Assembly: GCA_050743525.1 (NCBI GenBank) | Contig: JBOGFV010000022.1 | Coordinates: 1 to 34,240 of the forward strand | Reading direction: 5' to 3' | DNA from: Acidimicrobiales bacterium | Lineage (GTDB): Bacteria > Actinomycetota > Acidimicrobiia > Acidimicrobiales > RAAP-2 | Length of the DNA stretch: 34,240 bases | Part shown: positions 1,626 to 28,697 of the stretch, one piece after another | Layout of the letters: the number at the start of each line of letters is the position of its first letter | Numbering within the stretch: the first letter of the stretch is position 1 | The notes under the pieces: generated by a model | Told to the model about the DNA's origin: nothing | Seen by the model: only the letters and a program-made list of their open reading frames with translations | Database searches by the model: none | Program-made: the position numbers and the translations under genes

Positions 1626-3974
1626 CTAACTGAAGAGGCCGTCGCCCATCGCCTCGGCCACCTCGGCCTCGTCGATGCCGAGCAGCTCGGGGTACACCTC
1701 GAAGTTGTGTTCACCCGGGTATGCGGCGGCTTGCCGGTACGGCTCAAGCGTCATCGCGCTCCAGATGGCGGGATAGCGGTCGTGTGGCCGGATCCCGAAC
1801 GTCGGGTGATCGAATGTCCGCCACATGGCTCGGTCGACCAGCTGGGGGTCCACCATGAGGTCACCGGTGGTCTGGATCTTGCCGGCGGGTACGCCGGCAG
1901 CCTGGAGACGAGCGGCTCCTTCGTCGGCGTCGACCGTGGCCACCCACCGGCCGACCAGTCGATCGACGGCCTCGGGGTGCTCGATGCGGCCCTCAACCAT
2001 CGCCAGCTGCGGGTCGCCAGCCGCGCCGATGACGCCCGCGAGGCGCTGCCAGTCGCCGTCGTCCCGGCACGACACGGCCAGCCACTCGCCGTCGGCGGCC
2101 CGGTAGCACTCGTTCGGGGCCAGCTGTTCGAATGGATCCCGGTTGCCTTCGGGATGGGCCTCCCGTCCGTTGTTGAGGTAGTCGACCAGGGCGGGACCAA
2201 TCAGATACCCGCCCGTCTCCATCTGGGAGATGTCGACGTGCTGACCCTCACCGGTGGCCTGACGTCCCTCGAGCGCTGCCAGTACTGCGAACGCAGCCGA
2301 CAGCCCGGCCGCGATGTCGTTGAGCGAGAAGCCTGGCCCGAGGTCGCCCCGGCCGGGAGGGTTGGAGAGGTAGGTGAGGCCGCACATCGCGTGGATGGTG
2401 GGGGCAAAGGTGACCAGGCTCGCCCACGGCCCCTCGTGGCCGCAGCCCGACATGGTCACGTAGACGATGGCCGGGTTCCAGGCCTGTACCTCCTTATAGG
2501 AGAGGCCCCAGCGGTCGAGCACCCCGGCCGAGAAGTTCTCGATGAGGACGTCGCTCTGCTCAACGAGCTTGCGCATCACCTCGTTGGCCTGCTCGTGCTT
2601 CATGTTGAGGGTGACCACCCGCTTGGAGCGGTTCCACGCGTAGAAGTAGGGGTGAGCGGGGTCGTTCACCGTGCGGGCCCGCTCGGTCGTCTGGACCTTC
2701 ACGATGTCGGCCCCGAGATCCCCGAGGGTCCGGGTGCACATCGGGCCGGCCAGCACATGGCTCAAGTCGAGGACCCGAAGACCGCTCAGCGGCTTGTCCA
2801 GCTCGGCCGGCACTTCCTCGGGCCCCGGGGCCGGCCGCCCCCACGACTCGAGGAGCGCTTCGAAGTCAGCCAACTCCCCGGGCGGACGGGGTGCTGGGGC
2901 GGGCGTCCCCAGGAACCGGGCGATGGGGCCGGGGATCGAGACGTCCGGACCCGCCCAGTCGACTGGGCGGAAGAACCTGCGGTACTCGTGCTGTGGGTTG
3001 GTGGCCACCTGAGCCACGGTCTGGACCTCCGCGAAGGCGATGTGTCGTTCTTGGGCCGAGTGGAACAGCTCGCCGGCGTCCTTGGTCTTGGCGAACTCTC
3101 CGATCGTGTCCATGACCCTGCCGAGGTTCCCGATCAACTCCTCCGGAGGAAGTGTGGCCAGCTCGATCGCCGGCTCGAACTGCTCCTCCAACATCCAGGT
3201 CATGAGACCGACCGCGTTGGGCGTGGGCGTGATCATCTCCCAGCCGGTCTTGGCCGGCACCACTTTGTAGGCGCCGATCCAGTGCAACGAGCCCTGCCGC
3301 AACGCGACCTTCGGATAGGGCAGGTGGTCGTCGAACCAGTACTGGAACAGGAGCTGCTCGACCGTGGAGCAGACCGACTCGTGGAGCGAGAGGTCCACGT
3401 GCTGGCCCACCCCGGTGACCCCGGCCGCCCGGACCGCCGCCAAGCCGCTGATCGCGGCGAGGAGACCTCCGAAGTTGAAGGCCTGTCGGCCCCACGGGTT
3501 GATCGGCTGGTCGGGAAGCCCTGACACCGACAGAACTCCGCCCATGGCTGCCGCCACGAGGTCGCTCGTCTGCCAGCCAGCCCGGGGACCGGTCCGGCCG
3601 AACGGGGTGAGCGAGACTTGAGCGAGGCGGCGGTTGGTCGGCGCCAGGTCGGGGTGGTCGAGGCCCATGTCCGCGAGCGCGCCAGGTGCCTGCGTCTCGA
3701 CGATGAGGTCGACCCGTTCGGCCAGCGCGCGGTATCCGGTCCGACCGGCGTCGGTGGTGAGGTCGAGGTTGATTCGGGCCTTCCCGCCGTCGTACCACCA
3801 ATCGAGCAGGCCGCCCTGGGCCACCACCTCGACGTCGCGCATGGCCGGTCCTGGCGTCGTCGGGCAGATCTGGACGACGGATGCGCCGGACTCGGCGAGC
3901 AGCTTGGTCGCAAAGCGACCGCTGTCGTCGGTGACGTCCAGAACTCGGAGACCCTCCAATGGGCCCTGCATCAT
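1626..3974 (-). CDS. Duplicated (tandem two-domain) family III CoA-transferase, CaiB/BaiF type
   Basis: 782-aa ORF. The N-half begins MMQGPLEGLRVLDVTDDSGRFATKLLAESGASVVQI. The C-half restarts with LSGLRVLDLSHVLAGPMCTRTLGDLGADIVKV. Both halves carry a GQHVD(L/I)S segment. The C-half has the LNDIAAGLSAAFAVLAAL block expected around the catalytic Asp. Confidence 0.85.
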   Translation of the reverse strand: MMQGPLEGLRVLDVTDDSGRFATKLLAESGASVVQICPTTPGPAMRDVEVVAQGGLLDWWYDGGKARINLDLTTDAGRTGYRALAERVDLIVETQAPGALADMGLDHPDLAPTNRRLAQVSLTPFGRTGPRAGWQTSDLVAAAMGGVLSVSGLPDQPINPWGRQAFNFGGLLAAISGLAAVRAAGVTGVGQHVDLSLHESVCSTVEQLLFQYWFDDHLPYPKVALRQGSLHWIGAYKVVPAKTGWEMITPTPNAVGLMTWMLEEQFEPAIELATLPPEELIGNLGRVMDTIGEFAKTKDAGELFHSAQERHIAFAEVQTVAQVATNPQHEYRRFFRPVDWAGPDVSIPGPIARFLGTPAPAPRPPGELADFEALLESWGRPAPGPEEVPAELDKPLSGLRVLDLSHVLAGPMCTRTLGDLGADIVKVQTTERARTVNDPAHPYFYAWNRSKRVVTLNMKHEQANEVMRKLVEQSDVLIENFSAGVLDRWGLSYKEVQAWNPAIVYVTMSGCGHEGPWASLVTFAPTIHAMCGLTYLSNPPGRGDLGPGFSLNDIAAGLSAAFAVLAALEGRQATGEGQHVDISQMETGGYLIGPALVDYLNNGREAHPEGNRDPFEQLAPNECYRAADGEWLAVSCRDDGDWQRLAGVIGAAGDPQLAMVEGRIEHPEAVDRLVGRWVATVDADEGAARLQAAGVPAGKIQTTGDLMVDPQLVDRAMWRTFDHPTFGIRPHDRYPAIWSAMTLEPYRQAAAYPGEHNFEVYPELLGIDEAEVAEAMGDGLFS

Positions 3975-4004: not shown

Positions 4005-4320
4005 TTAGGCAGTTTTGACGACGATCGAGGTCCTTGGTCCGAGCGGTTCGGGCTGGTGACCACGGTCCAGGACCGTCGGATGCTCCCGCCCAAACGGGCT
4101 GTACACCCCGATGTCCGCATCGGGATCACGGGCCCGCAGCTCCCCGCTGTGCGATCAGCGGAAGGAGGTGGTCCCCGTAGTTCTGTCCCCCAAACCCCAA
4201 CGGTTTCCGGCCTTCGCCATCTCCCGGCGCGATCAAGGCGAAGCCGGACCCCCGAATTGTACCGGGCGGCCAGAAGTTCCCTGGTGGAGAGGTCGTTGCC
4301 ACCGTGAGACCAGCCGCCTC
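4005..4320 (-). pseudogene. Possible remnant of the C-terminal part of an unidentified enzyme gene, read across three frames
   Basis: My own translation of this 'intergenic' stretch gives protein-like pieces in successive minus-strand frames. They are WSHGGNDLSTRELLAARYNSG, then GSGFALIAPGDGEGRKPLGFGGQNYGDHLLPLIAQRGAAGP (stop 4128..4126), then DPDADIGVYSPFGREHPTVLDRGHQPEPLGPRTSIVVKTA (4127..4008, TAA 4007..4005). There is no start codon and no single intact frame. Confidence 0.3.
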
Positions 4321-4329
4321 CCGACCCGG

Positions 4330-5610
4330 TCAGCCGCTGTCGCCGACGCTCGACTGGGAGAACTCGTCGGCCAGGAGCGACTCGCCTCGGAAGATGGGCG
4401 AGCGGCGGACCTGGCGCTCGATCGACGTCGCAGTCAGCGTGTAGCCAAGGAACAGCAGCAGGGAGACCGTCTGGATGGCCACGCCCGGCCACAGCGTGCT
4501 CGAGTGCGAGAGGACAAAGTCGTTGAGGGCGTGAAGGACCGCGGCCAGCGCGATGCCGCCGATGATGAGCTCGATCCGGCGGCGGGCGTAGTTGACCCCC
4601 ATCCCGATGAAAAAGGCTGACATGCCGGCCCAAATGGCGTGCTGGAACCCGTCGACGAACACCCGCTCGGCGAAGGCGAGCAGGTCGACGATCACCAGAC
4701 CCGGGTTGTGGTTGATCTGGAGCACCGAGGCGGCGGTGTAGCCCGAGGCCTCGCGGACGCCGAAGGTCAATCCCGAGATGGTGCCGAGGAACATCCACAT
4801 GCGGACGTCCCACCGGCTGCTCCGGGCCTTGCGGATCACGAGGGCGATCACAAGGACCGGCAGCGCCTTGGTGATCTCCTCGTTGAAGCCGACCCCGAGT
4901 GCGTCACCGAAGTGTTTCAGGGACAGGTGGTTGTTGATGTTGATCGTCACCACCTGCATCCACGCCAGGACCGCCCCGATGATCAGGATCGCCGCCAGCA
5001 CCTCCTTCTTCCCGATCCGACCGGGCCGGATCAGCAGGTAGAAGGCGATCGCCCACAGCGGGGCCACGTACAGGCTGTAAGCCCATCCCGGCGTCGTCGC
5101 GTTGGTGGTGTTGGAGTACAGCTGGATGAAGATGAGCGGCAAGAGCGCGTACGGGATCACCAAGATCCGCCAGCCTGTCCGCCATCCCCGGTTGGTGAGC
5201 CAGCTCCGCAGCGGCACCAGGATGTGGAGCGCAGAGGCGAACTCGCGCATCGCGTCCGGGTGTGCCGGTGCGGCTCCGACCCCTGCGCCCACCACCGGCA
5301 TCACCGCGTCGGCGGCGGGGGGGTGGGCGAGCTCGATCCGCAGCGCCGGCCCGTCGGGAGTGGCCAGGTGGATCTCCGTCGGGGCGGTGATGACCTGGCG
5401 ATCGACCGGGGTGCCGCCGACGAAGGTTCGGCCCTTGCTCACTTCGGTCAGGACCCAGCCCTCTGGGCCGTAGATGAGTTGCGCATGCTCCCTCGAGACC
5501 GACGGGTCGTCCACCACGACGGCGCTCTCGGCCGATCGACCGATGGTGACCATGCCCGGCGGCGCGAACTCGTGCACGCTCCCGGCCACGACGACTCGAA
5601 TGTTGCTCAT
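4330..5610 (-). CDS. FHA domain fused to a PrsW-family intramembrane metalloprotease
   Basis: The track ORF is 4330..5847. I prefer the ATG at 5610 (MSNIRVVVAG), which is preceded by a G-run usable as a ribosome-binding site. FHA signature: TIGRSAESAVVVDDPSVSREHAQLIYGPEGWVLTEVSKGRTFVGG. About 8 TM helices follow, carrying PrsW motifs: FNEEITKALP (EExxK), VDGFQHAIWAG and AAVLHALNDF (HxxxN/D). Confidence 0.8.
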   Translation of the reverse strand: MSNIRVVVAGSVHEFAPPGMVTIGRSAESAVVVDDPSVSREHAQLIYGPEGWVLTEVSKGRTFVGGTPVDRQVITAPTEIHLATPDGPALRIELAHPPAADAVMPVVGAGVGAAPAHPDAMREFASALHILVPLRSWLTNRGWRTGWRILVIPYALLPLIFIQLYSNTTNATTPGWAYSLYVAPLWAIAFYLLIRPGRIGKKEVLAAILIIGAVLAWMQVVTININNHLSLKHFGDALGVGFNEEITKALPVLVIALVIRKARSSRWDVRMWMFLGTISGLTFGVREASGYTAASVLQINHNPGLVIVDLLAFAERVFVDGFQHAIWAGMSAFFIGMGVNYARRRIELIIGGIALAAVLHALNDFVLSHSSTLWPGVAIQTVSLLLFLGYTLTATSIERQVRRSPIFRGESLLADEFSQSSVGDSG

Positions 5611-5773
5611 TACCCCCCCGGCAGCACAGATTCCGACGCGATCGACGGCGGCGAATCCTCGCATCAGATCGTCGGACCCGCCACCGGCCCGGGACGGGTA
5701 GTGCGCGCGGGGGTAACATCCGCGTCCCCACGGACGCTCGGGCCGGCCACGGCCCCGGGCCACAAGGAGGACC

Positions 5774-6883
5774 GTGCCCGATCCTGTCTGGGACCCATCG
5801 GGGAAGACCGCCGACGCGCTCAAATCCATCGTGTCGGACTTCGGCACGAGGGCGCTGTCGACGCCGTCGATCCTGGAGAACGTCCTTCACGACCTGCTCC
5901 CGGACTCGCCCCGCCAGGTAAGCCTGATCGTCGCGGCGGGCGGCTCGTCGGTCGCCGCCTCACTCCAGGAGCAGGTCGGCAACGGGATGGACCCGGAAAC
6001 CGCCGTCCGCCTGGCGGCCGCCCAGCTGGCCGAGCAGACCCCATTTGACGCGGCGGGCTGCCGCTGGGTGGTGGTCGAGTTCGCTCGAGCCCTCGGTCAC
6101 CAAGTCGCCGACAGTGCCGAGGTGCCGATCGCACCCACACCGGCAGTGGAGACCCCGGGACCGGCAGCGCCGGTTATGCCGGCCAGCCCCGTCAACCAAC
6201 CGAGCGCGGACAAGGCCGAGACGGTGCTCCCCGGGGCTCCTGGTGGGGACGCGACCCCGGTCCCTGCCACTCCGGTCGTGTCGGGCGGGGTGGCGGTACC
6301 GCGGAGGCGGCGCCGCACTCCGATGGTGCTCGTCGCGCTCTTGATCGTGCTCGGTGCCCTGGTCGGAGTAGCGGCCGGCACCCACTTCGGCCCCTTCAAG
6401 CCCTCTCCTTCGTCGGCGCCGCTAAGGAAGTTGCTCCCCGATGATGTCGCCGCGTGCACGACCAATGTCGGGCACTTCAAGTTCACCGGGATGACGGCGA
6501 TCATCGGTTGCAACGTGAACGCGATCGGCGGCCTCGTGTTCTCGTACCAGTTCGACAACCAGGCCGACTTCCAAACCAGCCTGGCCTCATTCAACAAGGC
6601 GGAAGGGTTCGCCCCCGGAAGGGCGAGCGGGAACTGCCCACCGAACCAAAGCGATGGCAATGGCGTGACCACCTGGCACAGCCATCTCTTCCCCCCCGTC
6701 TCCGGCCAGAAGCTGGAGTGCTACACGGTCTTCTCCAACCACAATGCCAATGACGCGCGCGCCACCTATGTCTGGGAAGTGCCGAGCGAGTTCGCGTTCT
6801 TCCAGGCGGTCACCGGTCGTGGCTACACCATGAACCAAATCAACAATTGGTGGGTCAACCACGCCGGGCCGTTCCACAAGTGA
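5774..6883 (+). CDS. Single-pass membrane protein: cytoplasmic helical N-domain, Pro/Ala-rich linker, RRRRR-TM anchor and Cys-containing extracytoplasmic domain (sensor-like, unknown family)
   Basis: GTG start at 5774, 3 nt after an AAGGAGG site. The TM segment is RRRRRTPMVLVALLIVLGALVGVAAG. The C-terminal domain has 4 Cys (CTTNVGHF..IIGCNVN..GNCPPNQ..LECYTV) and ends NNWWVNHAGPFHK. Confidence 0.75.
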   Translation: MPDPVWDPSGKTADALKSIVSDFGTRALSTPSILENVLHDLLPDSPRQVSLIVAAGGSSVAASLQEQVGNGMDPETAVRLAAAQLAEQTPFDAAGCRWVVVEFARALGHQVADSAEVPIAPTPAVETPGPAAPVMPASPVNQPSADKAETVLPGAPGGDATPVPATPVVSGGVAVPRRRRRTPMVLVALLIVLGALVGVAAGTHFGPFKPSPSSAPLRKLLPDDVAACTTNVGHFKFTGMTAIIGCNVNAIGGLVFSYQFDNQADFQTSLASFNKAEGFAPGRASGNCPPNQSDGNGVTTWHSHLFPPVSGQKLECYTVFSNHNANDARATYVWEVPSEFAFFQAVTGRGYTMNQINNWWVNHAGPFHK

Positions 6884-6893
6884 GCGCCCGCCC

Positions 6894-7610
6894 GTGACCG
6901 CGGTTTCGGAGCCCGTCATGCCAGGAGGCGGCGTCGCCCGCCGCCCGCTGCACTTCATCATCATGGCGGACTGCTCCGGCTCGATGGCTGGCGACCGGAT
7001 GCAGGCGCTCAACTACGCGATCGCCGACATGCTCCCGCAACTGGCCGACTGGGAGCGTGACCAGCTGGTCGCCCAGGTGATGGTGCGGGTCCTCGGATTC
7101 GCGACCGCCCCGGTGTGGCACGTCCCGGATCCGGTTCCCGTGGCCGACCTGCGCTGGAAGGCGCTGCACGCCGTCGCGGGTGGGTACACCAACATGGGGC
7201 CAGCATTCCGCGAGGTCGCGGCAGCGATCGGCCCGGACCGGCTGGAGAGCCGGGCGCTGAGGCCGGCGATCCTCCTCGTCACCGACGGTCGTCCGACCGA
7301 CTTGGGGAACGAGTTCGCCGATGGCCTCGCCGCGCTCACTTCCTTCCCGGCCGGCCAGGCCGCGCTCCGGCTGGCCATCGCGATCGGCCACGACGCCAAG
7401 TCCGAGTTCCTGGACCAATTCATCGGCGACCCGACGGTGCCGGTGATCGTGGCTGGCAACACCGAGGAGATCGCCGAGCGGCTGGTCGCCGCGTCGATCG
7501 CGGTCTCCCGGCTCTCCGAGTCGGGCGCCGACCAGGGGGCGCTCGTGAGCCAGCTGCTGGGCACCGGGTCGGGGCGCCCCGAGGACTCCGAGGACCAGAG
7601 CATCCTCTGA
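6894..7610 (+). CDS. von Willebrand factor A (vWA) domain protein, TerY-like
   Basis: Intact MIDAS start HFIIMADCSGSMAGDRM (DxSxS), a later LLVTDGRPTD block, and length 238 aa. It starts 10 nt after the previous stop. An alternative ATG lies at 6918. Confidence 0.85.
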   Translation: MTAVSEPVMPGGGVARRPLHFIIMADCSGSMAGDRMQALNYAIADMLPQLADWERDQLVAQVMVRVLGFATAPVWHVPDPVPVADLRWKALHAVAGGYTNMGPAFREVAAAIGPDRLESRALRPAILLVTDGRPTDLGNEFADGLAALTSFPAGQAALRLAIAIGHDAKSEFLDQFIGDPTVPVIVAGNTEEIAERLVAASIAVSRLSESGADQGALVSQLLGTGSGRPEDSEDQSIL

Positions 7611-7613
7611 GCG

Positions 7614-8471
7614 ATGACAAACCCGGCTGAAGCGTCGACCGGCCCCGCAGGGTGGGACGTCATGACCGCGTCCACACGCGGCGCCGCCCATGAGGCCACC
7701 GACCGTCCCAACCAGGACGCTCAGGGGTGGCGGGTGCTCGACCCGGCCCGCCGGCTGGTCATCGGGGCCGTGGCCGACGGCCACGGGCACTCCCGTCACT
7801 TCCGGTCCGAACAGGGCGCTCGCCTGGCCGTCGAGCAAGGGTGTGACGCCGCCGCCGCCGTTGTGGGCACCTTCGATGGGCTAGAGGCCGACGACCAGGT
7901 CGCCGGCGCGGTCCGGGCCGAACTCGTGGACCGGGTGGTCGACCGGTGGTCTCGTGCCGTCGCTGAGGACCACGACCGCAGGCCCTTCAACCCCGAGGAG
8001 GAGGCGGTCCGGGCGATGTACGACGACGAGGTCGCCATCGCCTATGGGAGCACCCTGCTCCTGCTCGTGCTCCTGCCGCGATGGGTGGTGGTGGCCCAGA
8101 TCGGCGACGGCGACGTCGTGGCGCTGCACGCCGATGGCTCGGTCGCGGTGCCGGTCCCCGTCGACCCGTCCCTCGACGGGCACTACACGACCAGCCTGTG
8201 TCAGCCCGGGGCGGCGGACTCGTTCCGCGTCGCGGTGCTCGACCGATCCGAGACCCCCGTCCTCGGCATGCTCGCCGCGACCGACGGGTTCGGCAACGCC
8301 CAGGCGGCCGAGCCCTGGCAGGACGCGGTGGGCACCGACCTCTCCGAGATGCTGCGGTCCAAGGGGACCGGCTGGGTGCGGGACCGGCTCGGGTCGTGGA
8401 CCGAGCAGTGCGCGTCGAGCGACGGGAGTGGCGACGACACCACGGTGCTGCTGGCGGTGGCCGACCGGTGA
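7614..8471 (+). CDS. PP2C-family Ser/Thr protein phosphatase
   Basis: Motifs: NQDAQGW, VIGAVADGHGHSRH, VVAQIGDGDVV, LAATDGFGN, SGDDTTVLLAV. It starts 3 nt after the vWA stop. Confidence 0.85.
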   Translation: MTNPAEASTGPAGWDVMTASTRGAAHEATDRPNQDAQGWRVLDPARRLVIGAVADGHGHSRHFRSEQGARLAVEQGCDAAAAVVGTFDGLEADDQVAGAVRAELVDRVVDRWSRAVAEDHDRRPFNPEEEAVRAMYDDEVAIAYGSTLLLLVLLPRWVVVAQIGDGDVVALHADGSVAVPVPVDPSLDGHYTTSLCQPGAADSFRVAVLDRSETPVLGMLAATDGFGNAQAAEPWQDAVGTDLSEMLRSKGTGWVRDRLGSWTEQCASSDGSGDDTTVLLAVADR

Positions 8472-9781
8472 TCCGGTTGCCCGAGCAGGGCGACATCCTG
8501 TCGATGTCCCGGGTCGGCTCGGCCTTGACCGTGGGGCGCCGGCTCCAGCAGGGCGGACAGGGCGTCGTCCACGAGTCCTTCGTCGGCGACGGCGTCTTCG
8601 CAATGAAGTGGCTCCGGGTGTCGGACCGCACCGCGGCGCTCCGTGCCTCGATCGAGGCGCTCGTCGACCGTCCCCGCCCCAATCCCGCCTTTGTCTGGCC
8701 CATCGACATCGTGACGAGCGCCGAGCTGGAGGGGTTCGGCTACGTCATGCGGCTGCTGGAGCCCCGCTACGTGTCGTTCGCCCGGATGCTCCAGGACCAG
8801 CCGACCTTTCGCAGCCTGACGACGGTGGCCCGCAAGTTGGTCGATTCGTTCGCCGCCCTCCACTCCTCGGGTCTCTGCTACCGGGACATCAGCTTCAACA
8901 ATCTCTACGTGGACCCGATCCGCTCGGAGGTCGCCGTCATCGACAACGACAACGTCGGCCTCGACGGGGGCGACGTCTTCGTCAAGGGCACCAACCAATT
9001 CATGGCACCCGAGGTGGTGCGGGACGAGGCCTTGCCCTCGACCGTGACCGATCTGTGGTCGCTCGCCGTCTTCCTCTTCATCCTGTTCGTGCGGGGCCAT
9101 CCCCTGGAAGGCCTGAGGGCGGTCTCCAGCTACTCGTGGGCCCAGACCGACCACGCCTCCGAGCACGAGCTGCTGCTTCGCAACTTCGGCTTCGGGCCTG
9201 TCTTCGTGTTCGACCCCGACGACGACTCGAACCGACCGTCACCCGAGAGCCCGATGCTCATCTATTGGCCCATCTACCCGCAGTTCTTCCGGGATCTCAT
9301 GACCCGGTCGTTCACCGTCGGGCTCACCGACGCCTCGCTGTCGGGCCGTCCGACCGGGAGCGTGTGGCGCCGGGCACTGCTTCGACTCTCCGACATGCAC
9401 GCCACCTGCAGGTGCAACGCCGCGATCTTCTTCGACCCCGACGAGCCGGGCCGGCCGTGCTGGCGGTGCGGCAACGTCCCGCCGCCTCAGCCCATCCTCC
9501 GGTTGCCCGGACGGAGCCTGGTGCTCTCGGAGGGGAGCACGGTGAGCTCCGACCACCTGCGCCGCGACCGCGCGTACGACCAAGCCGTGGCGGTGGTCGA
9601 AGCCCACCCGAGCGAGCCCGGCGCAGTGGTCCTCCGGAACCTCGGTCCTTCCACGTGGTCTGCCCGCCCGGTTGCCGAGTCCGAGCGTGCGGTCGCCCCG
9701 AGCCAGAGGCTGGGGGTGCGGCCGATGGGAATCGATTTCGGGTCGGTCGCGGGCGAGATCGCGCTCAGCGAGCTCGCCTGA
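8468..9781 (+). CDS. Ser/Thr protein kinase (triad type) with C-terminal Cys4 zinc-ribbon-like motif and beta-rich tail
   Basis: The track ORF starts at 8081 inside the PP2C gene. I prefer the in-frame GTG at 8468, which overlaps the PP2C stop (GTGA). Kinase motifs: LQQGGQGVVHES (Gly loop), VFAMKWL (Lys), LCYRDISFNNLYV (catalytic loop), AVIDNDNVG (DFG equivalent), GTNQFMAPEV (APE). The tail carries CRCN...CWRCGN. Confidence 0.8.
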   Translation: MIRLPEQGDILSMSRVGSALTVGRRLQQGGQGVVHESFVGDGVFAMKWLRVSDRTAALRASIEALVDRPRPNPAFVWPIDIVTSAELEGFGYVMRLLEPRYVSFARMLQDQPTFRSLTTVARKLVDSFAALHSSGLCYRDISFNNLYVDPIRSEVAVIDNDNVGLDGGDVFVKGTNQFMAPEVVRDEALPSTVTDLWSLAVFLFILFVRGHPLEGLRAVSSYSWAQTDHASEHELLLRNFGFGPVFVFDPDDDSNRPSPESPMLIYWPIYPQFFRDLMTRSFTVGLTDASLSGRPTGSVWRRALLRLSDMHATCRCNAAIFFDPDEPGRPCWRCGNVPPPQPILRLPGRSLVLSEGSTVSSDHLRRDRAYDQAVAVVEAHPSEPGAVVLRNLGPSTWSARPVAESERAVAPSQRLGVRPMGIDFGSVAGEIALSELA

Positions 9782-9863
9782 CGCAATTGTTCGGTCACCC
9801 GTCCTGGAGCCGGTTCGGTCTTCGGCCCATTGCGCGGGCCGGTCGGCTCGTGGCCAGTTCCGG

Positions 9864-10229
9864 CTAGACCGGGTCGAGGACCTCGGCGAGTCGCTCGGGC
9901 GGGCGGGCGATCACCGCCCGGTTACCTCGCACGACGACCGGCCGCTCCATCAGCTCGGGATGGGCGAGAAGGAGATCGATCACCTCGCCGGCGGTCCTGT
10001 AGCCGGCCGGATCGAGGTCGAGTTCCTTGAAGCGCGGGTCGCCACGGCGGACCAAATCCGCCACCGGCCCCACGAGCTTGCCGGCGATGTCCTCGAGCTC
10101 GATACGAGTAAGCGGGGTCACGAGATACTCGACGACGCGTGCGTCGATGGCGCGCTCGCCCAGGATGCCGAGCGCCCCCCGGCTCTTCGAGCAGCTCGGG
10201 TTGTGGAAGATCGTGACGTCGTCGGTCAT
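9864..10229 (-). CDS. arsC: Arsenate reductase, glutaredoxin-type ArsC family
   Basis: MTDDVTIFHNPSCSKSRGALGIL...HPELMERPVVV lines up with the R773/E. coli ArsC pattern (YHNPxCxxSR ... INRPIVV). I prefer the ATG at 10229, which gives about 121 aa, over the track start at 10274. Confidence 0.8.
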   Translation of the reverse strand: MTDDVTIFHNPSCSKSRGALGILGERAIDARVVEYLVTPLTRIELEDIAGKLVGPVADLVRRGDPRFKELDLDPAGYRTAGEVIDLLLAHPELMERPVVVRGNRAVIARPPERLAEVLDPV

Positions 10230-17736: not shown

Positions 17737-18987
17737 CTACAGCTGACCCAGGTAGAAGCGGGTGCCCTGGTCGTCGGTGCACGTCGAGGAGATCCCATAC
17801 GGCTGGGCCTCGGGATCGGTGGCCGCGCCCCCCGCCTCCCGCACCCGCTCGACCGCCACCGCGACGTCGTCGACTCGGTACATCGGGATCACCACGGGGT
17901 CGCGCCCGCCGGCCACCCCGACCATCGGGACGACGTCGTCGACGTTCCAGCCGTCCTCCACCCGGCCGGGCTCGAACCGCCAGCCGAGCACCGAGCCATA
18001 GAAAGCCCGGGTCCGAGCCGAGTCGGCCACCTCCATCGTCACGTAGGCGAGGTCGCCGTGGCGCGAGCCGTTGGGGGCCGCGGCGGCGCCCGAGACGGTG
18101 CCGCCGGGCGGCTCGAATATCGCGAACGCGACGCCCTGGTCGTCGGTGCAATCGGCCAGAAGGCCGTAGGGCTCCTCGGTGGGCTCGTTGGCGGTGCCGC
18201 CGGCGGCGCGGATCCGCTCGCCGGCGGCGTCAATCGAGTCGACTGCGTAGCAGCAGAAGAGCGTGGGGTCGCTGGCGCGCTCCCACACGCCGTGGTGCAG
18301 GCTCTGGCCCTGGACCTGTCGGCCCTGCGGGCCGCTGGCCGGTCCGTAGGACCACCCGAGGACATGGGCGAAGAACTCGGTGGCCCGCGTGACGTCGGGG
18401 ACCCACAGCGAGACGTAGCCGATGTCGCCGTGGCGCGGCCCCGTCGGAGCCTCCCGCATCAGCATCCAGCGGTGGCCGTAGGGGTCACGGACCACCCCGC
18501 CGCGGCCGTACTGGTGGTCGGTGAGCGGCCGCTCCATCCGGGCGCCGGCGGCCAGGGCCCGCTCGAAGAGCGTGTCGACGTCAGGGACCGACACGTGGAT
18601 GGTCACGGGGACCCCGGCGTCGGGATCCGGGGCCGCGACCCCGATCCCAGCGCTCTCCTCGGCGAGCATCAGGCGGGCGCCACCGAGGTCGAGCTCCGCG
18701 TGGCCGACGGTGCCGTCGCCCATGACGATGGGGTCGCCGACCACCCGGGCGCCGAGGGCGTCCGCGTACCAGGCCAGGGCCGACTCGGCCCCTCGGACGA
18801 TCAGGTACGGCGAGACCGAGGCGTTCGTGGTGAGGACGGCGGGCTCCCGGACGGCGAGATCGGACATGGTGCCTCCTTGGGTCGGGGTGAGGGCGCGGGC
18901 GACCCGCTCGCGCAGGCGGGCGGCGAAGATCGGATCGGGGTCGACGGGGGAGTCGTCGAGTCGCAGGTGCTCGAAGGGGTCAGGCAT
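17737..18987 (-). CDS. Three-module VOC/glyoxalase superfamily protein with a 40-aa N-terminal extension
   Basis: 416 aa. Module 1 is PhnB-like (SPYLIVRGAESALAWYADALGARV...HAELDLGGARLMLAEE). Modules 2 and 3 begin GDIGYVSLWVPDVTRATEFFAHVLGW and GDLAYVTMEVADSARTRAFYGSVLGW. The start ATG overlaps the sigma-factor stop by 8 nt. Confidence 0.8.
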   Translation of the reverse strand: MPDPFEHLRLDDSPVDPDPIFAARLRERVARALTPTQGGTMSDLAVREPAVLTTNASVSPYLIVRGAESALAWYADALGARVVGDPIVMGDGTVGHAELDLGGARLMLAEESAGIGVAAPDPDAGVPVTIHVSVPDVDTLFERALAAGARMERPLTDHQYGRGGVVRDPYGHRWMLMREAPTGPRHGDIGYVSLWVPDVTRATEFFAHVLGWSYGPASGPQGRQVQGQSLHHGVWERASDPTLFCCYAVDSIDAAGERIRAAGGTANEPTEEPYGLLADCTDDQGVAFAIFEPPGGTVSGAAAAPNGSRHGDLAYVTMEVADSARTRAFYGSVLGWRFEPGRVEDGWNVDDVVPMVGVAGGRDPVVIPMYRVDDVAVAVERVREAGGAATDPEAQPYGISSTCTDDQGTRFYLGQL

Positions 18988-19504
18988 CCTGATCGTCCTC
19001 GTCGAGGTAGGCGCGCCGGAACGCGCGGCGGGCCCGGACGAGCAGCGCCTCGGGGGCGTGCACGGTCCGGGAGAGAGGGGCGGCGACCTCGGTAACGCTC
19101 AGAGCGTCGAGGTAGCGGAGGGTGAGGGCGGCGCGGTGCTGGGCGGCCAATCCGTTCAGCACCGCGCCGACCCGCATGGCATCGAGCTCGGCGTCCCAGG
19201 GGTCCGCCAACGAGGGCTCCTCGTCGGCCAGCGCGGCCAGTCGGCGCTCGCCGCGGGCCTGGCCTCGCCAATGGTCGACCAGCTTGTGGCGGGCCACGCC
19301 GATCACCCAGGGCACCGAGACCGCCGGGGCGCCTGGCCGTCGGGCCGCGTCGACCGCGGCAAGGAAGGTCTCGGCGGTCAGGTCTTCGACGACCGCCTGC
19401 GGGCCGCACCGCCGAGCCAGATAGCCGTAGACGTGCGGGAGGGCGTCGTCGTAGAAGTCGAGGAAGGACTGGTGGTCACCGGTGACCGCCGACGGCACGC
19501 CCAT
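18980..19504 (-). CDS. ECF-type sigma-70 family RNA polymerase sigma factor
   Basis: ATG at 19504 (MGVPSAVTGDHQSFLDFYDDALPHVYGYLARRCG) within the longer track ORF. Region 2: AEDLTAETFLAAV, WVIGVARHKLVDHWR. Region 4: AAQHRAALTLRYLDALSVTEVAAPLSRTVHAPEALLVRARRAFR. Confidence 0.85.
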   Translation of the reverse strand: MGVPSAVTGDHQSFLDFYDDALPHVYGYLARRCGPQAVVEDLTAETFLAAVDAARRPGAPAVSVPWVIGVARHKLVDHWRGQARGERRLAALADEEPSLADPWDAELDAMRVGAVLNGLAAQHRAALTLRYLDALSVTEVAAPLSRTVHAPEALLVRARRAFRRAYLDEDDQDA

Positions 19505-23959: not shown

Positions 23960-24352
23960 CTACGAGCTGGTCGACCCCGAGCGAGCCAACAGGTCCCTGA
24001 TCTCGGTCAGGATCTGGACCTCCTCGGACACCTCGGCCTCGTCTGTCTGCGGGCCCCGCCGGCGGGCCAGCACGGCGTTCATCGGGGCGACCACGAGGAA
24101 GTAGACGGCGGCCGCGATGGCGAGGAAGGCGATGATGACGTTGACGAGGTCGCCGTAGTGGAAGGTGCTGTGGTGCACCGTGAAGGTCAGGTTGTTGAAG
24201 TTCGGCTTGCCGGCGATGGCGGCGATCAGCGGGGTGACGATGTCCCGGACCAGCGCCTGGACCACTGCATTGAACGCCACCCCGATGACCACCGCGATCG
24301 CCAGGTCGACCACGGTGCCCCGCAGGATGAACTGCCGGAATCCCTTGAGCAT
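23960..24352 (-). CDS. mscL: Large-conductance mechanosensitive channel MscL
   Basis: ATG at 24352. MLKGFRQFILRGTVVDLAIAVVIGVAFNAVVQALVRDIVTPLI is the canonical MscL TM1. Length 130 aa with a second TM and a charged C-terminal helix. Confidence 0.9.
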   Translation of the reverse strand: MLKGFRQFILRGTVVDLAIAVVIGVAFNAVVQALVRDIVTPLIAAIAGKPNFNNLTFTVHHSTFHYGDLVNVIIAFLAIAAAVYFLVVAPMNAVLARRRGPQTDEAEVSEEVQILTEIRDLLARSGSTSS

Positions 24353-24408
24353 GGTGTGCCCCCTCTCCCTCGGCCACCTCCGGGTGGCCTTCTGGAGCTT
24401 GGCACACC
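24353..24408. promoter_or_regulatory. Nested inverted repeats in the mscL / copZ divergent intergenic region
   Basis: Outer arms: GGTGTGCC (24353..24360) and GGCACACC (24401..24408). Inner arms: GGCCACC (24372..24378) and GGTGGCC (24383..24389), with a 4-nt spacer. The outer arm abuts the mscL start codon. Confidence 0.3.
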
Positions 24409-24474
24409 CCCTGAGCTGGGATCGGGTTCGCGGCGACGGCCCGATCGAGTGAGCGTGGGAATTACGCTGGGCCA

Positions 24475-24726
24475 ATGCCGATCGACGCCGACGGGACTGG
24501 CACCATGGTCGAGCTCGAGGTGGGTGGCATGCACTGTCAGTCCTGTGTGGCCCTGATCGAGGAGACGCTGGCTTCAGAACCCTGGGTGAAGTCGGTCCGC
24601 GTCGACCTCGATGCCGGTCGGGCCCTCGTCGTGTTCGACGGCAGCGCCATCACGGTCGACGAATTGTGCGCCGCGGTGGTGGGGGCGGGTTACCCCGCCC
24701 GCTCTCTCTCTTCTCCGGGTTCCTAA
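24475..24726 (+). CDS. copZ: Copper chaperone CopZ (HMA domain)
   Basis: MVELEVGGMHCQSCVALIEETL carries the MxCxxC metal-binding motif in a ferredoxin-like domain of about 70 aa. An alternative start lies at 24505. Confidence 0.85.
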   Translation: MPIDADGTGTMVELEVGGMHCQSCVALIEETLASEPWVKSVRVDLDAGRALVVFDGSAITVDELCAAVVGAGYPARSLSSPGS

Positions 24727-24775
24727 TGCTCACCGCCCCCTTGGACCGGGCGGTCGCGATCGAAGAGGGCGTCCG

Positions 24776-27394
24776 GTGGTGACGACCAGCGAGCTCGCGC
24801 TCGAGGGCATGCACTGCAGCGCCTGCGCGACCCGGATTGAGCGAACGTTGTCGGGCCGGGCCGCCGTGCTCAGCGCCTCGGTCAACCTGGCCACCAACCG
24901 AGCCTTCGTGACCTACGACACCGATGCGGCGGACCTCGCCGACCTGTGCGCGGCGGTCGTCGCGATCGGCTACGGCGCCACCGAGGCCGGACCCGGTGGC
25001 GAGCCATCGGGCGGTGATTCGGAGCGTTGGATCGCCCGGGCGCTGGTGTCGTGGCCAGCGGCCGTCGCCGCGCTGCTGGTGGCGCTGGTCGGCCCCGAGA
25101 ACGCGACGGCCGGATGGGCGGTCCTCATCCTCGGGATCCTCGTCGAGCTGACCGGGGGCTGGCCATTCATCCGCACGACCGTCCGGCTCCTCCGGCACGG
25201 CGCGACCAGCATGGACACGCTCATCGCGGTGGGGACGCTGGCCGCGCTGACGGTCAGTGCCGTCGAGGCGATCGCCCTCGGCGGCCGCCATGTGCACCTC
25301 GGCGGCAACGGCGCCTTTGCGGCCCGCCTGCACGGCGTGATGGCACCGATCATCGTGTCGATTCTCGTGACCGGCCGAGCCATCGAGGCGCGCGCTCGAC
25401 ACCGGGCCGCCCGCGCGATGCGGTCCCTGATGGGCCTGAGGCCGCCCACGGCCCGGGTCGTGGTCGGCCTCGACGACCAGGAGGGGCGACTGGTCGCGCC
25501 TGAGAGTGTCCCGGTCGGCGCGCTCGTGCGGATCCGCCCGAACGAGGTCATCCCGCTCGACGGCACGGTCATGACCGGCCACTCGGCGGTCGACGAGTCC
25601 CTTCTGACGGGCGAGCCGCTGCCAGTCGACCGCGGTCCCGGGAGTCCGGTGACCGGCGGGACCCGAAACGGGTCGGGCGCATTGGTGGCCCAGGTCGAGA
25701 CGACCGCCGATGAGTCGGTGCTGGCCCAGATGCAGCGGCTCGTCGACGAGGCCCAGCGGGACAAGCCCCCGATCCAGCAACTGGCCGACCGCATCAGCGG
25801 GGTCTTCGTCCCGGCCGTGCTCCTGCTCGCGTTGGCCGCGTTCCTCGGGTGGTGGCTCGGTGACGGCAACTTCGGGATCGCCGTGCTGAGTGCGGTGGCG
25901 GTCCTTCTGGTCGCATGCCCTTGTGCGATGGGCCTCGCCACGCCGGTGGCGATGATGGTCGGCACCGGCCGGGCCTCGACGCTCGGCATCCTGATCCGCA
26001 GCGGGCAAGTGTTGGAGCGCCTCGCTCGGGCCGACACCGTGGCGTTCGACAAGACGGGCACCCTGACCGAGCGGTTCGCCCGGGTGACCACGGTGGCGGC
26101 CGTGGAGGGGATGGGCGACCACGAGCTGCTCGAACTGGCCTCGTCGGTGGAGGCCGAGAGCGAGCACCCGATCGCCTGGGCGATTCGGGACGCGGCCGCA
26201 CCCGCAGGTCAAGCGACCGCGGTCGAGTCGGTCACCGGATCCGGCGTGACCGGCCTTGTCGGCGGCCACCGGGTGAGCGTGGGCCGTGCCGACCCCAACG
26301 AGCTGCCCGCCGCCCTGGCCGATTCCGTCGCTGCGGCACTGGGCCGGGGCGACACGGTGGTCTCGGTGGCGCGCGACGGAGTGGTCGTCGGGGTGATCGG
26401 ACTGGCCACCCCAATTCGACCGGACGCGGCGCCGGCGGTCGCCCAGCTGCACGGCATGGGCCTCGACACCGCCATCTTGAGCGGCGACGGGGCCGAGGCG
26501 GTCAAGACGATCGCGGCGTCGGTGCGCATCGACGAGGTCCGCAGCCGGCTGGCCCCGGCCGACAAGTTGAACGCGTTGCGCGAGTGGCAGTCCGACGGTC
26601 ACCGGGTCGTGATGGTCGGTGACGGCGTGAACGACGCGCCGGCGCTCGCCGCCGCCGACATCGGGTGCGCGGTGGGCAGCGGCGCCGACATCGCCGTTTC
26701 CAACAGCGATGTCGCCCTCTTGGGCAGCAACCTGCACGGGGTTCCGGGGGCGATCGGGATCGCGAGGGCCACTTCGGCGGTCATCCTCCAGAACTTCGGG
26801 TGGGCGATGGGTTACAACATCTCGGCCATCCCGCTGGCGGCGGCCGGCCTTCTCGATCCACTGGTGGCGGCGATCACGATGGGCGTCTCCAGCCTGATCG
26901 TGGTCCTGAACAGCCTGCGGCTCATGCGGCTCGGCCGGGCCGGGATCGATACCATCAGACCCCCGACGCTCTTCCGGGGCGCCCGCGGGTTCGCCGCCTC
27001 GGTGCTGATCCCGGTCGCGTTGTTCGCCGGGGCGACCGTGGTGACGCAGATCTACTCGCCGAGCCGCGGACAGTCGCTGTTGCCGACCTTCTACGACATC
27101 ACCACCGTCGATCTCCCGGGTGGGGTCGGCGCGCAGGTGTACCTGGTCAAAGCGAATGCCGGCGTGAACACCTTCCATGTGCTGTTCACGACTCCGGGCC
27201 CCGCAGTTGGCCGACCCAGCGCCACGGCCGCCCGGGGGAGCGGGGTGCCGAGCCCCTTGCGAATCACCCGGTACAGCCCCAACCACTATCTGGCCGTCGG
27301 GGTGTTCACGCCTGCCGGCACCTGGCACTTCCAGGTCCACGTCCGGGTGGGTGGGCACCAGCGATCCTTCGGCATCGTCCGCACGCTCACCTGA
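24776..27394 (+). CDS. copA: Cu(I)-translocating P1B-type ATPase (CopA/CtpA-like) with an extra C-terminal TM helix and a roughly 110-aa extracytoplasmic domain
   Basis: I prefer the in-frame GTG at 24776 (VVTTSELALEGMHCSACATRIE) over the track start at 24611, which overlaps copZ. Motifs: CPC (LLVACPCAMGLATP), FDKTGTLT, SEHPIAWAI, MVGDGVNDAPAL, MGYNISAIP, MGVSSLIVVLNSLRL. A further 149 aa begin at 26945. Confidence 0.9.
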   Translation: MVTTSELALEGMHCSACATRIERTLSGRAAVLSASVNLATNRAFVTYDTDAADLADLCAAVVAIGYGATEAGPGGEPSGGDSERWIARALVSWPAAVAALLVALVGPENATAGWAVLILGILVELTGGWPFIRTTVRLLRHGATSMDTLIAVGTLAALTVSAVEAIALGGRHVHLGGNGAFAARLHGVMAPIIVSILVTGRAIEARARHRAARAMRSLMGLRPPTARVVVGLDDQEGRLVAPESVPVGALVRIRPNEVIPLDGTVMTGHSAVDESLLTGEPLPVDRGPGSPVTGGTRNGSGALVAQVETTADESVLAQMQRLVDEAQRDKPPIQQLADRISGVFVPAVLLLALAAFLGWWLGDGNFGIAVLSAVAVLLVACPCAMGLATPVAMMVGTGRASTLGILIRSGQVLERLARADTVAFDKTGTLTERFARVTTVAAVEGMGDHELLELASSVEAESEHPIAWAIRDAAAPAGQATAVESVTGSGVTGLVGGHRVSVGRADPNELPAALADSVAAALGRGDTVVSVARDGVVVGVIGLATPIRPDAAPAVAQLHGMGLDTAILSGDGAEAVKTIAASVRIDEVRSRLAPADKLNALREWQSDGHRVVMVGDGVNDAPALAAADIGCAVGSGADIAVSNSDVALLGSNLHGVPGAIGIARATSAVILQNFGWAMGYNISAIPLAAAGLLDPLVAAITMGVSSLIVVLNSLRLMRLGRAGIDTIRPPTLFRGARGFAASVLIPVALFAGATVVTQIYSPSRGQSLLPTFYDITTVDLPGGVGAQVYLVKANAGVNTFHVLFTTPGPAVGRPSATAARGSGVPSPLRITRYSPNHYLAVGVFTPAGTWHFQVHVRVGGHQRSFGIVRTLT

Positions 27395-27566
27395 GCGGTG
27401 CTCGGACACCCGAACGGATCCGCACGTCCCAATCCGTCAGCCCGACCCGCCAGACCGAGAGCCCGAGGCTGGGCTGCCGGTTCCAGCGAGGCCCTCGGGA
27501 GAAACGTCGGGCCCGAACCGTCCGGGCCTGCCTCACTGACCAGGCGCTGTTGGCTACCCTAAGGCC

Positions 27567-28697
27567 GTGCGACTGACCCGGGTTGTGAAATCGTTTGCCC
27601 CGCTGCTGCTCCTGGCCGCCGCCCTCACGGTGGTCATCGGTCCGTCGAGGGCCCAGGGCTCGGTCGCCATCACCACGATCAACCTCCAGCAGGCCCGGGC
27701 CTACACCCCCAAGGCGCCGGCCGGGGCCACCGACGACTACCACTGCACATTGCTCAACCCGCACGTGAAGGCGAACTCCTACATCGTCGGGAGCCAGTTC
27801 TTCCCCGGGTCCAAGGAAGACCACCACTCGATCCTCTTCCTGGTCCCGCCGAACCTGGCCAGCGCGGCCCAGGCGGCCAACGTCGGCAACGGCGGCTGGT
27901 CGTGCTTCGGTGAGACGCCGATCCCGGGCACCGGGCTGGGGCAGATCTCCAACACCCCGTGGCTCGCCGCCTGGGCGCCCGGCCACGGCGCTGACTCGCT
28001 GCCCAAGGGCACCGGCATCTACCTGCCGGCCGGCAGCCTCGTCGTGATGCAGGTCCACTACAACCTGCTGGTCGGGCACAAGCCGGTCAAGAACTCGCTC
28101 ACGCTAAAGACGGTCCCGGCCTCCACGCCGCTGCAGCCGCTGAAGCTGGACCTCATGCCGGCTCCGCCGGACATCCCGTGCCCGGCCAACACCAGCGGCC
28201 CGTTGTGCTCCCGTGCCGCGTCCCTGACCAACCTGGGTCAGCGGTTCGGGGCCAGCGCGGTCGGCTTTGTGAATGCCATCGAGGCGGTGTGCGGCCGGAG
28301 CCCGAGCAACCCGCCGATTGGCGACTCGACCTCGTGCGAGTGGCCCATCTACTCCGACGGCTACATCGTGCGGGCCGGAGCCCACATGCACCTGCTGGGG
28401 GTGAGCTTCACCATGACGCTCAACCCAGGCACGCCGCAGGCCAAGACCATCCTGAACGTGCCGGCCTACAACTTCGACTTCCAGAAGGCCTACACGATGG
28501 CCCACCCGATCCCGGTCCAACCCGGCGACAAGGTGCAGGTCACCTGCAACTACAACCCCCAGCTCGGCCAGGAGCTCCCGCTCCTGCGCAAGGTGGCGCC
28601 GCACTTCGTGACGTGGGGCGACGGGTCCTCCGACGAGATGTGCCTCGGGCTCATGTGGACCGCGACGGCCCTGCCGAACGCCTCGGCTTCGGTCTAG
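27567..28697 (+). CDS. Secreted copper type II ascorbate-dependent monooxygenase-like protein (PHM/DBH fold)
   Basis: Signal peptide MRLTRVVKSFAPLLLLAAALTVVIGPSRAQG. CuH-site ligand pattern: KEDHHSILF and VVMQVHYNL. CuM-site pattern: AGAHMHLLG (HxH) and SSDEMCLG (Met). Conserved Cys pairs: DDYHCTLL and GGWSCFGE. Confidence 0.8.
   Translation: MRLTRVVKSFAPLLLLAAALTVVIGPSRAQGSVAITTINLQQARAYTPKAPAGATDDYHCTLLNPHVKANSYIVGSQFFPGSKEDHHSILFLVPPNLASAAQAANVGNGGWSCFGETPIPGTGLGQISNTPWLAAWAPGHGADSLPKGTGIYLPAGSLVVMQVHYNLLVGHKPVKNSLTLKTVPASTPLQPLKLDLMPAPPDIPCPANTSGPLCSRAASLTNLGQRFGASAVGFVNAIEAVCGRSPSNPPIGDSTSCEWPIYSDGYIVRAGAHMHLLGVSFTMTLNPGTPQAKTILNVPAYNFDFQKAYTMAHPIPVQPGDKVQVTCNYNPQLGQELPLLRKVAPHFVTWGDGSSDEMCLGLMWTATALPNASASV

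Follow-up and report, generated by a model that had tools for sequence, protein, structure and literature searches.

Whether a membrane protease fused to a candidate phosphothreonine (pThr) reader and an adjoining kinase and phosphatase operon belong to one signalling system, and what such a system would control, is the question raised by positions 4330-9781 of a contig (JBOGFV010000022.1) of an Acidimicrobiales bacterium. The window, that is the whole stretch of 34,240 nucleotides analysed here (approximately 70% G+C), contains five genes at this place. One protein of the window has 100% identity to a partial protein of an Acidimicrobiales metagenome-assembled genome. The gene for an FHA-PrsW protein (4330-5610; 426 aa, ATG start) lies on the minus strand, and on the plus strand follow the genes for a membrane protein (5774-6883), a TerY/YegL-like vWA protein (6894-7610), which is predicted to be cytoplasmic and has an intact metal ion-dependent adhesion site (MIDAS) and a Ser-rich conserved C-terminal helix, a PphC-like Ser/Thr phosphatase of the PP2C type (7614-8471) and a YegI-like Ser/Thr kinase (8468-9781). 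The initial annotation, made from the letters of the sequence, had proposed that the last three genes, here called the triad, and their neighbors are an undescribed kinase/phosphatase switch gating the protease, and it had set beforehand the co-conservation of FHA-PrsW with the triad as a test. This co-conservation was found, and it is concluded with high confidence that the five genes work together.

The coordinates of the five open reading frames (ORFs), the gaps of 10 nt between the membrane-protein and vWA genes and of 3 nt between vWA and PP2C, the 4-nt overlap of PP2C and kinase (GTGA) and the divergent intergenic region of 163 bp between the FHA-PrsW and membrane-protein genes were all as first annotated, and a gene caller based on G+C at third codon positions (GC3) returned the same five genes. 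The start of FHA-PrsW was set at 5610, though the longest ORF reaches 5847, because of GC3 scoring and orthologue alignments; orthologue alignments also back the PP2C start at 7614.

Co-conservation of the five genes

The survey anchored on FHA-PrsW covered 80 loci from GTDB species representatives. The full triad is present within 10 kb in 21 of them, one more has the kinase at the contig edge (kinase total, 22 of 80), and in 11 only a PP2C gene lies directly upstream. The survey anchored on the kinase covered 80 metagenome loci, 63 of them in the actinobacterial clade, and 36 of these 63 have at least 1.5 kb of downstream sequence. In these 36 loci, FHA-PrsW was found in 24, an FHA-transmembrane (TM)-Trypsin_2 gene upstream of the membrane-protein gene in three and an FHA-ABC transporter in two, and the remaining seven end upstream at a contig edge. 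Where both sides are visible, an FHA-fused protease is present in all 11 loci (eight PrsW, three trypsin). The test was therefore positive from both anchors (22/80 and 24/36). A membrane protein with the N-terminal domain described below lies directly upstream of the vWA gene in 36 of the 40 testable loci.

The module occurs in dozens of Actinomycetota contigs, having flanking genes that differ between loci and identities across loci of 41-86% for FHA-PrsW and 44-84% for the kinase. The divergent layout of the window is shared by its closest relatives (loci L001-L003, L084 and L087-L089), and many more, more distant loci have the co-directional order membrane protein, vWA, PP2C, kinase and FHA-PrsW. 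Measured between aligned ends, the kinase-to-FHA-PrsW distance is 20-122 nt in 49 co-directional loci, mostly 32-33 nt. In a neighbor-joining tree of PrsW domains, the triad-linked copies make up entire clades; some of the sister clades keep only PP2C and FHA-PrsW, and separate clades consist of unlinked paralogues. Distant outgroup triads from gut and termite metagenomes (about 30% kinase identity) lack both the membrane protein and FHA-PrsW. No cultured host of the module was found, every related locus with a named source being from a metagenome-assembled genome and the others lying on metagenome contigs.

Reduced forms of the module were also observed. In L081 (8513-9950) and L033 (7997-9937), intact ORFs encode vWA and kinase proteins with internal, in-frame deletions next to intact PP2C and FHA-PrsW genes; the deleted kinases keep their N-terminal segment and the C-terminal FHA fold, the catalytic core being gone. 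These forms represent either intermediates of decay or a scaffold form lacking the kinase. In L125 (1194-6716), and also in L063, L076, L077 and L118, the module or reduced forms of it lie directly downstream of one gene block, read from the sequences without Pfam as genes for four products: a nucleotidyl-transferase/phosphomannomutase-like one, a small FHA protein, one of 156 aa and one that is MerR-like. This block resembles the mycobacterial garA-Rv1828-Rv1830 region, presumably a housekeeping one, and at this chromosomal position the full module, PP2C with FHA-PrsW, and FHA-PrsW alone all occur.

Exchange of the FHA-fused effector

In several loci, the place of FHA-PrsW is taken by another FHA-fused membrane protein. 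This is an FHA-TM-Trypsin_2 protein in L109, L114, L117, L122, L157, L167 and L168 and an Rv1747-like FHA-ABC transporter in L023, L095, L099 and L166. Four further long contigs have, one each, an FHA-ABC transporter, an FHA-trypsin protein, an FHA-FHA-trypsin protein with a second kinase, and a decayed locus with a truncated vWA gene. The effector is displaced non-homologously with the FHA domain kept, which is the strongest clue to the mechanism; PrsW, the trypsin-like protein and the ABC transporter have in common that they are membrane machines with a predicted cytoplasmic pThr reader.

One of these loci, L168 (6250-14832), has genes for a small FHA protein, a kinase, an FHA-FHA-Trypsin_2 protein, a protein like the membrane protein, vWA, PP2C and another kinase; the module is here duplicated or elaborated.

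The FHA-PrsW protein

The FHA-PrsW protein begins with a cytoplasmic FHA domain (residues ~1-100), which a variable linker joins to a polytopic PrsW-type protease domain (residues ~140-400). Both assignments were confirmed with Pfam, with an E-value of 2e-11 for FHA (PF00498), above the gathering score, and of 7e-16 for PrsW-protease (PF13367; 58.7 bits against a cutoff of 23.5). In 14 FHA-PrsW homologues, down to 54% identity, the FHA residues G24, R25, S39, R40 and H42 are invariant, as are E244, E245, K248, H324, H360, N363 and D364 of the PrsW motifs. The protease domain has the EExxK/R, FxxxH and HxxxN/D motifs of the PrsW family (MEROPS M82) in a polytopic membrane domain, and a hydropathy scan of the protein gave at least six hydrophobic segments. 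The nearest solved FHA domains are the two of Mycobacterium tuberculosis Rv1747, whose conserved motifs GR and SxxH align with R25, S39, R40 and H42. In this protein the FHA domain is a candidate pThr reader.

The vWA, PP2C and kinase proteins

The vWA protein matches VWA_2 with an E-value of 4e-5, below the Pfam gathering score. The assignment stands nonetheless because of the intact, conserved MIDAS (D26-x-S28-x-S30, T99, D131), of which D26, S28, T99 and D131 are conserved in 57 vWA homologues, and because of homology to Escherichia coli YegL (33% identity, E = 4e-9, pairwise BLASTP). Its C-terminal tail has the conserved Ser residues S201, S205 and S208 and no conserved Thr. By analogy with ArnB this tail was considered as a target of the FHA domain, and it is a less likely one, since FHA domains are specific for pThr.

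The phosphatase matches PP2C_2 in Pfam (E = 2e-28), has the metal-binding motifs ADGHGH, IGDGD, ATDGF and GDDTT and is 29% identical to E. coli PphC (E = 2e-7, pairwise BLASTP). Several co-directional loci, such as L125 (8653-9993) and L094 (8853-9983), encode a PP2C with a long C-terminal extension, which in L125 holds a hydrophobic segment and may anchor the phosphatase in the membrane there.

The kinase has a catalytic domain at 8468-9367 (plus strand) with a Pkinase match in Pfam (E = 2e-11) that spans residues 115-216 only. K47, D140, N145, D159-N-D161, the activation-loop T175 and the APE motif are conserved in 61 homologues, and the protein is 25% identical to E. coli YegI over 342 residues (E = 2e-12, pairwise BLASTP). 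It is, by prediction, soluble. The last 140 residues have no Pfam match; an alignment-based AlphaFold2 (AF2) model of this part has a confidence score (pLDDT) of 92 and consists of a zinc ribbon with a beta-sandwich after it. The ribbon (9407-9469, plus strand) has four Cys residues, C314, C316, C331 and C334, all invariant in 24 homologues. The beta-sandwich corresponds in AF2 and Foldseek to a divergent FHA-fold domain (9485-9763, plus strand), the top Foldseek matches being all FHA (probability 1.00 for APLF, KIF1A, ArnA, MDC1 and TIFA, and 0.97 for Rv1747 FHA-1). From these matches and the invariant Cys residues, the protein is concluded to be a Ser/Thr kinase with a zinc ribbon and a divergent FHA domain.

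The domain content and homologies place the trio in the TerY-P / YegL-PphC-YegI family, as had been stated from the outset. The features of that family, a vWA protein with MIDAS, a PP2C and a kinase with zinc ribbon, are all present, and a C-terminal zinc ribbon on the kinase is part of the published TerY-P definition (PMC11090510). Linkage to Ter genes or restriction systems is common in the family but not needed for membership, and the window contains no Ter genes (TerD, TerB or TerC), in agreement with the initial annotation, and no DNA restriction or processing genes. All five domain assignments of that annotation (FHA, PrsW, vWA, PP2C and kinase) were upheld, the vWA by MIDAS and YegL homology; its inventory had missed the zinc ribbon and FHA fold of the kinase and a widespread domain family without Pfam model in the membrane protein.

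The membrane protein

This last family is represented by the N-terminal, cytoplasmic helical domain of the membrane protein (N-domain; residues 1-108, 5774-6097, plus strand), which has seven helices in the AF2 model (pLDDT 80-90) and is the best-conserved part of the protein. No significant Pfam or NCBIfam model was found for it, even at a relaxed E<=10 for separate domains, and Foldseek with the N-domain gave no structural match. In a library of 1.8 billion proteins it matches 659 cluster representatives at E<=1e-3. Among these relatives the domain is nearly always N-terminal and the C-termini are varied (DUF4190, fn3, beta-propellers, PDZ); Pfam scans of the longer ones gave varied C-terminal domains of extracytoplasmic type and no functional clue. 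In L034 (19646-21085) the N-domain forms a fusion with a Hanks-type Ser/Thr kinase of the classical kind (Pkinase E = 4e-43), attached at the kinase C-terminus, which hints that it is perhaps a kinase-associated module.

The N-domain is followed by a Pro-rich, cytoplasmic linker, which is disordered in the AF2 model and, among 26 orthologues, barely alignable outside one motif. This motif, DKAETVLP (D146-K-A-E-T150-V-L-P153; 6209-6232, plus strand), has T150 as candidate phospho-acceptor and is a putative FHA docking site; D146 and T150 are invariant and P153 is nearly so in the 26 orthologues. The linkers of other clades contain similar T-x-hydrophobic-x-P motifs (PTQVAPIP, ETLPP, TVMPG).

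As first described, the protein is Cys-rich and single-pass, with one strong TM helix (residues 184-202; 6323-6379, plus strand; hydropathy 2.76 over 19 residues). The sequence RRRRR just before it, a stop-transfer signal, indicates by the positive-inside rule an N-in topology. Outside the membrane follows an alpha/beta domain (residues ~215-369; 6416-6883, plus strand; AF2 pLDDT 75-89), a putative sensor, which is disulfide-bonded and has four invariant or nearly invariant Cys residues (C228, C246, C288 and C316). Foldseek gave for this outer domain weak matches (E 0.01-0.1) to PsbP, TM1622 and the soluble domain of mycobacterial TiME.

An anti-sigma function of the membrane protein was considered and rejected: Pfam and NCBIfam detected no zf-HC2 or other anti-sigma domain in it, and the Foldseek results were the weak PsbP, TM1622 and TiME matches of the outer domain and none for the N-domain.

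The intergenic region

The intergenic region between the two transcription units (5611-5773) was aligned with those of orthologous loci, six regions being taken in. Conserved blocks, CGAATCCT..CA.C.G and an invariant CGCCACCG, lie 42-77 nt upstream of the FHA-PrsW start, and on the side of the membrane-protein gene lie a -10-like hexamer, TAACAT in the window and TATGAT or TATAGT in orthologues, and the ribosome-binding site AAGGAGGAC. The blocks may be the site of a shared regulator or promoter elements. A scan of 4200-10000 with a strict sigma-70 consensus gave no promoter match, only the -10-like hexamers being conserved.

Proposed mechanism and alternative explanations

Here it is proposed, with middling confidence, that the five genes are one cell-envelope phospho-signalling module whose effector is a pThr-gated FHA-protease. 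The kinase would write a Thr phosphorylation and the PP2C phosphatase would erase it, resetting the switch. The best candidate phosphosite is T150 in the linker of the membrane protein, the alternative being T175 in the kinase activation loop. The FHA domain of FHA-PrsW would read the pThr mark and dock the protease on the membrane protein or on the kinase, and PrsW would then cut in the manner of a site-1 protease, at the membrane's outer face or close to it. Cytoplasmic phosphorylation would in this way decide when the receptor-like protein, or a membrane protein bound to it, is clipped, and clipping would turn the pathway on or off. By analogy with ArnA/ArnB, the vWA protein is probably a metal-dependent adaptor in the kinase complex, and together with the Zn-ribbon-FHA part of the kinase it may form the regulatory core of that complex.

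The known substrate of PrsW is cut outside the membrane. By this precedent the PrsW domain would act at or outside the membrane with the FHA domain inside, and so would the trypsin-like domain, which is predicted to follow the TM segment. Because a cytoplasmic mark would thus position a protease that cuts outside, its natural target would be a membrane-spanning protein with a phosphorylatable cytoplasmic part, and the N-domain membrane protein with its invariant T150 fits this description. The FHA-protease is taken as a phospho-dependent effector with moderate confidence and the neighboring membrane protein as its substrate via T150 with low to moderate confidence. The complete chain of events, in which the TerY-P kinase would mark T150, the PP2C erase the mark, the FHA domain read it inside, PrsW cut the same protein outside and the helical N-domain be released as output, is tentative and, taken as a whole, rather doubtful. 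Reading of a kinase mark by an FHA domain has precedents in ArnA-ArnB (PMC6509490) and in Fha-TssL of the type VI secretion system (PMC3953482); Rv1747, with the nearest solved FHA domains, is counted with them. The kinase/phosphatase switch of the initial annotation has gained support from the loci with another FHA-fused protease, and its further part, with the label of regulated intramembrane proteolysis (RIP) and the vWA protein as adaptor or target, stays inferred.

Several observations weigh against the proposal. The T150 motif is not strictly kept in all clades, the loci of trypsin and ABC type having only loosely similar ones. Throughout the family, Gly, Ala or Ser (G60 in the window protein) stands in place of the canonical Asn in the 'SxNG' loop of FHA domains, so that pThr binding by FHA-PrsW is likely rather than certain. 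In 47 of the 80 FHA-PrsW loci, which belong to paralogous clades, no dedicated kinase or PP2C is nearby, so other kinases can serve FHA-PrsW, and the neighboring membrane protein need not be its substrate. The FHA-ABC transporters in the protease slot suggest that the triad regulates any 'FHA-tagged membrane machine' and not specifically the proteolysis of a neighbor. Finally, the locus contains no output domain, no sigma factor and no site-2 protease.

In an alternative explanation, which is possible although unlikely, the FHA domain of PrsW would bind the autophosphorylated kinase (e.g., pT175) or a phosphorylated vWA-kinase complex. The soluble kinase would then be brought to the membrane or the protease be switched on allosterically, the substrate would be unlinked, for example an anti-sigma factor, and the neighboring membrane protein would be only the sensor that controls the kinase. 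The near abutment of the kinase and FHA-PrsW genes in 49 loci suggests a stoichiometric complex and agrees with this explanation, as do the conserved T175, the predicted solubility of the kinase, the existence of unlinked FHA-PrsW paralogues and the fusion of the N-domain to a Hanks kinase C-terminus in L034; moreover, the kinase C-terminus is an ArnA-like zinc ribbon and FHA domain with ArnA among its top structural matches, and ArnA binds phosphorylated ArnB (PMC6509490). However, the vWA tail offers conserved Ser and no conserved Thr to a pThr-specific domain, and kinase docking leaves unexplained why the N-domain protein is kept in 36 of 40 loci and why its linker Thr is invariant. A chance or historical juxtaposition of functionally unrelated FHA-PrsW and triad units is scarcely credible: the absence of the triad from 47 of 80 FHA-PrsW loci and the divergent transcription in the window agree with it, but the link was recovered in both survey directions, survives inversion (divergent vs co-directional) and changed flanks, is present in whole clades, and loci without PrsW carry another FHA-fused membrane effector, and on these grounds it is excluded. 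The spread of identities among FHA-PrsW and kinase homologues also argues against near-identical copies of a mobile element.

An anti-phage function, in which the triad would sense infection and the FHA-fused protease or transporter would damage the membrane or block phage development, is improbable, although TerY-P-like triads protect against T7-like phages (PMC7699616, PMC11090510), the swapping of effector modules is typical of defence systems, and the kinase gives weak PADLOC matches to the PD-T4-6 and Mad6 kinases. These kinase matches (PD-T4-6, Mad6, MkoA) are generic only, and the vWA, PP2C, FHA-PrsW and membrane proteins have no PADLOC match. The kinase ends in an FHA fold and not in the OB fold of the Gao system (PMC11090510); the neighbors of the module are metabolic, with no integrase, transposase or recognisable defence gene among the Pfam-annotated genes of the window; and scans of viral contigs gave one partial kinase relative and no FHA-PrsW, the module being essentially absent there. 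Whole clades keep the module, one of them beside the block that we take to be of the housekeeping garA type, and the extracytoplasmic sensor domain suits envelope sensing better than defence.

Genomic surroundings

No sigma factor or transcription factor is encoded inside the locus, as had been noted initially. The sole sigma factor of the window, of the extracytoplasmic function (ECF) type (18980-19504, minus strand; Sigma70_r2 and r4_2), lies 9 kb from the module, and its gene overlaps by 8 nt that of a 416-aa protein with glyoxalase/bleomycin-resistance domains (17737-18987, minus strand). The two genes (17737-19504) could be an unusual pair of a sigma and an anti-sigma-like factor. Positions 23960-28697 hold a copper/metal-related cluster with genes for MscL (23960-24475, minus strand), an HMA-domain P-type ATPase for heavy metals (24776-27394, plus strand) and a Cu2_monoox_C-domain protein (27567-28697, plus strand). 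Before the module, the minus strand encodes a 782-aa protein made of two CoA-transferase family III domains in tandem (1626-3974) and an ORF of 500 aa (2-1501) with a strong coding signal and no Pfam match, which runs off the window edge.

Significance and comparison with known systems

Triads of the TerY-P/YegL-PphC-YegI kind are widespread, E. coli included, and have so far one output, the anti-phage phenotype of one variant. The module described here ties such a triad to a testable output, a membrane protease or transporter with a pThr reader, and, as candidate input, to a membrane protein that has a domain outside the cytoplasm. If true, pThr-gated cleavage would be a new bacterial trigger of RIP and the first defined physiological output for TerY-P/YegI-type triads. 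Control of a PrsW-type site-1 protease by Ser/Thr phosphorylation is suggested, and no paper describing such control was found. Two unannotated domains were also exposed, the helical N-domain with its 659 cluster representatives and the cryptic FHA fold in which the triad kinase ends.

In the literature covered, which did not include the 2012 Ter paper, nothing was found that connects FHA-PrsW with a TerY-P triad, a PP2C or this membrane protein. Full-text searches pairing PrsW with FHA, PP2C or kinase returned the 2012 polymorphic-toxin paper alone, where a PrsW-FHA fusion is listed among fusions of signalling domains (PMC3482391).

In Bacillus subtilis, the PrsW-RsiW-RasP system of sigma-W RIP resembles the locus in that a PrsW with all conserved motifs stands beside a single-pass, N-in membrane protein made of a cytoplasmic domain, a TM helix and an extracytoplasmic domain, but the neighbor in the window has no detectable anti-sigma domain and no sigma factor is in the locus. 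A sigma-W-type cascade would have a cognate ECF sigma and anti-sigma factor in the locus; the sigma factor of the window is 9 kb away and the flanks of the module are not conserved. B. subtilis PrsW presumably lacks an FHA domain, whereas the PrsW of the window carries a cytoplasmic one, which implies that Ser/Thr phosphorylation controls it, and not envelope damage sensed directly.

In Sulfolobus, as in the module, an FHA reader (ArnA, Zn-finger and FHA), a vWA protein (ArnB), kinases (ArnC/D) and a phosphatase (PP2A) act together (PMC6509490, PMC12852372), and the C-terminus of the window kinase has the ArnA architecture, with the ArnA FHA domain among its top structural matches. ArnA and ArnB differ in being separate soluble proteins that regulate archaellum expression, with no protease or membrane receptor, whereas the Zn-ribbon-FHA part in the window is fused to the kinase. 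The Deinococcus radiodurans operon DRA0331-DRA0334, likened here by domain content alone, combines a vWA protein, a Ser/Thr protein kinase, an FHA protein and a KI-FHA-PP2C, with FHA domains as phospho-docking switches (bioRxiv 10.64898/2026.01.23.701218). There a soluble protein and the phosphatase carry the FHA domains, and a membrane protease or receptor-like protein is absent.

M. tuberculosis Rv1747 (FHA-FHA-ABC) is likewise a membrane machine with a cytoplasmic pThr reader; it has the nearest solved FHA domains, and Rv1747-like transporters occupy the effector slot in some loci. Its effector, however, is a transporter, and the kinase, reportedly PknF, is a Hanks receptor kinase and not a triad kinase.

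The TerY-P triad itself is said to have been defined computationally by Anantharaman, Iyer and Aravind in 2012. The initial statement that no mechanism or output had been shown for it is outdated. There is biochemical characterisation of YegI and PphC from E. coli (Rajagopalan and Dworkin; bioRxiv 10.1101/819920, 10.1101/303594), and Gao et al. 2020, as summarised elsewhere (PMC11090510, PMC7699616), showed TerY-P-like modules to be stand-alone anti-phage systems. The latter share with the window a vWA, a PP2C and a Ser/Thr kinase gene in one operon and differ in a kinase that ends in an OB fold (PMC11090510); the context in the window is not a defence island. In E. coli, three homologous proteins, YegL, PphC and YegI, are encoded side by side, but YegI has two TM helices and a helix-hairpin-helix where the window kinase has a zinc ribbon and an FHA fold. 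Compared with TerY-P systems in general, the triad of the window stands without Ter genes, restriction systems or CoCoNuT partners, and is coupled instead to a membrane protein with the N-domain and to a membrane effector fused to FHA.

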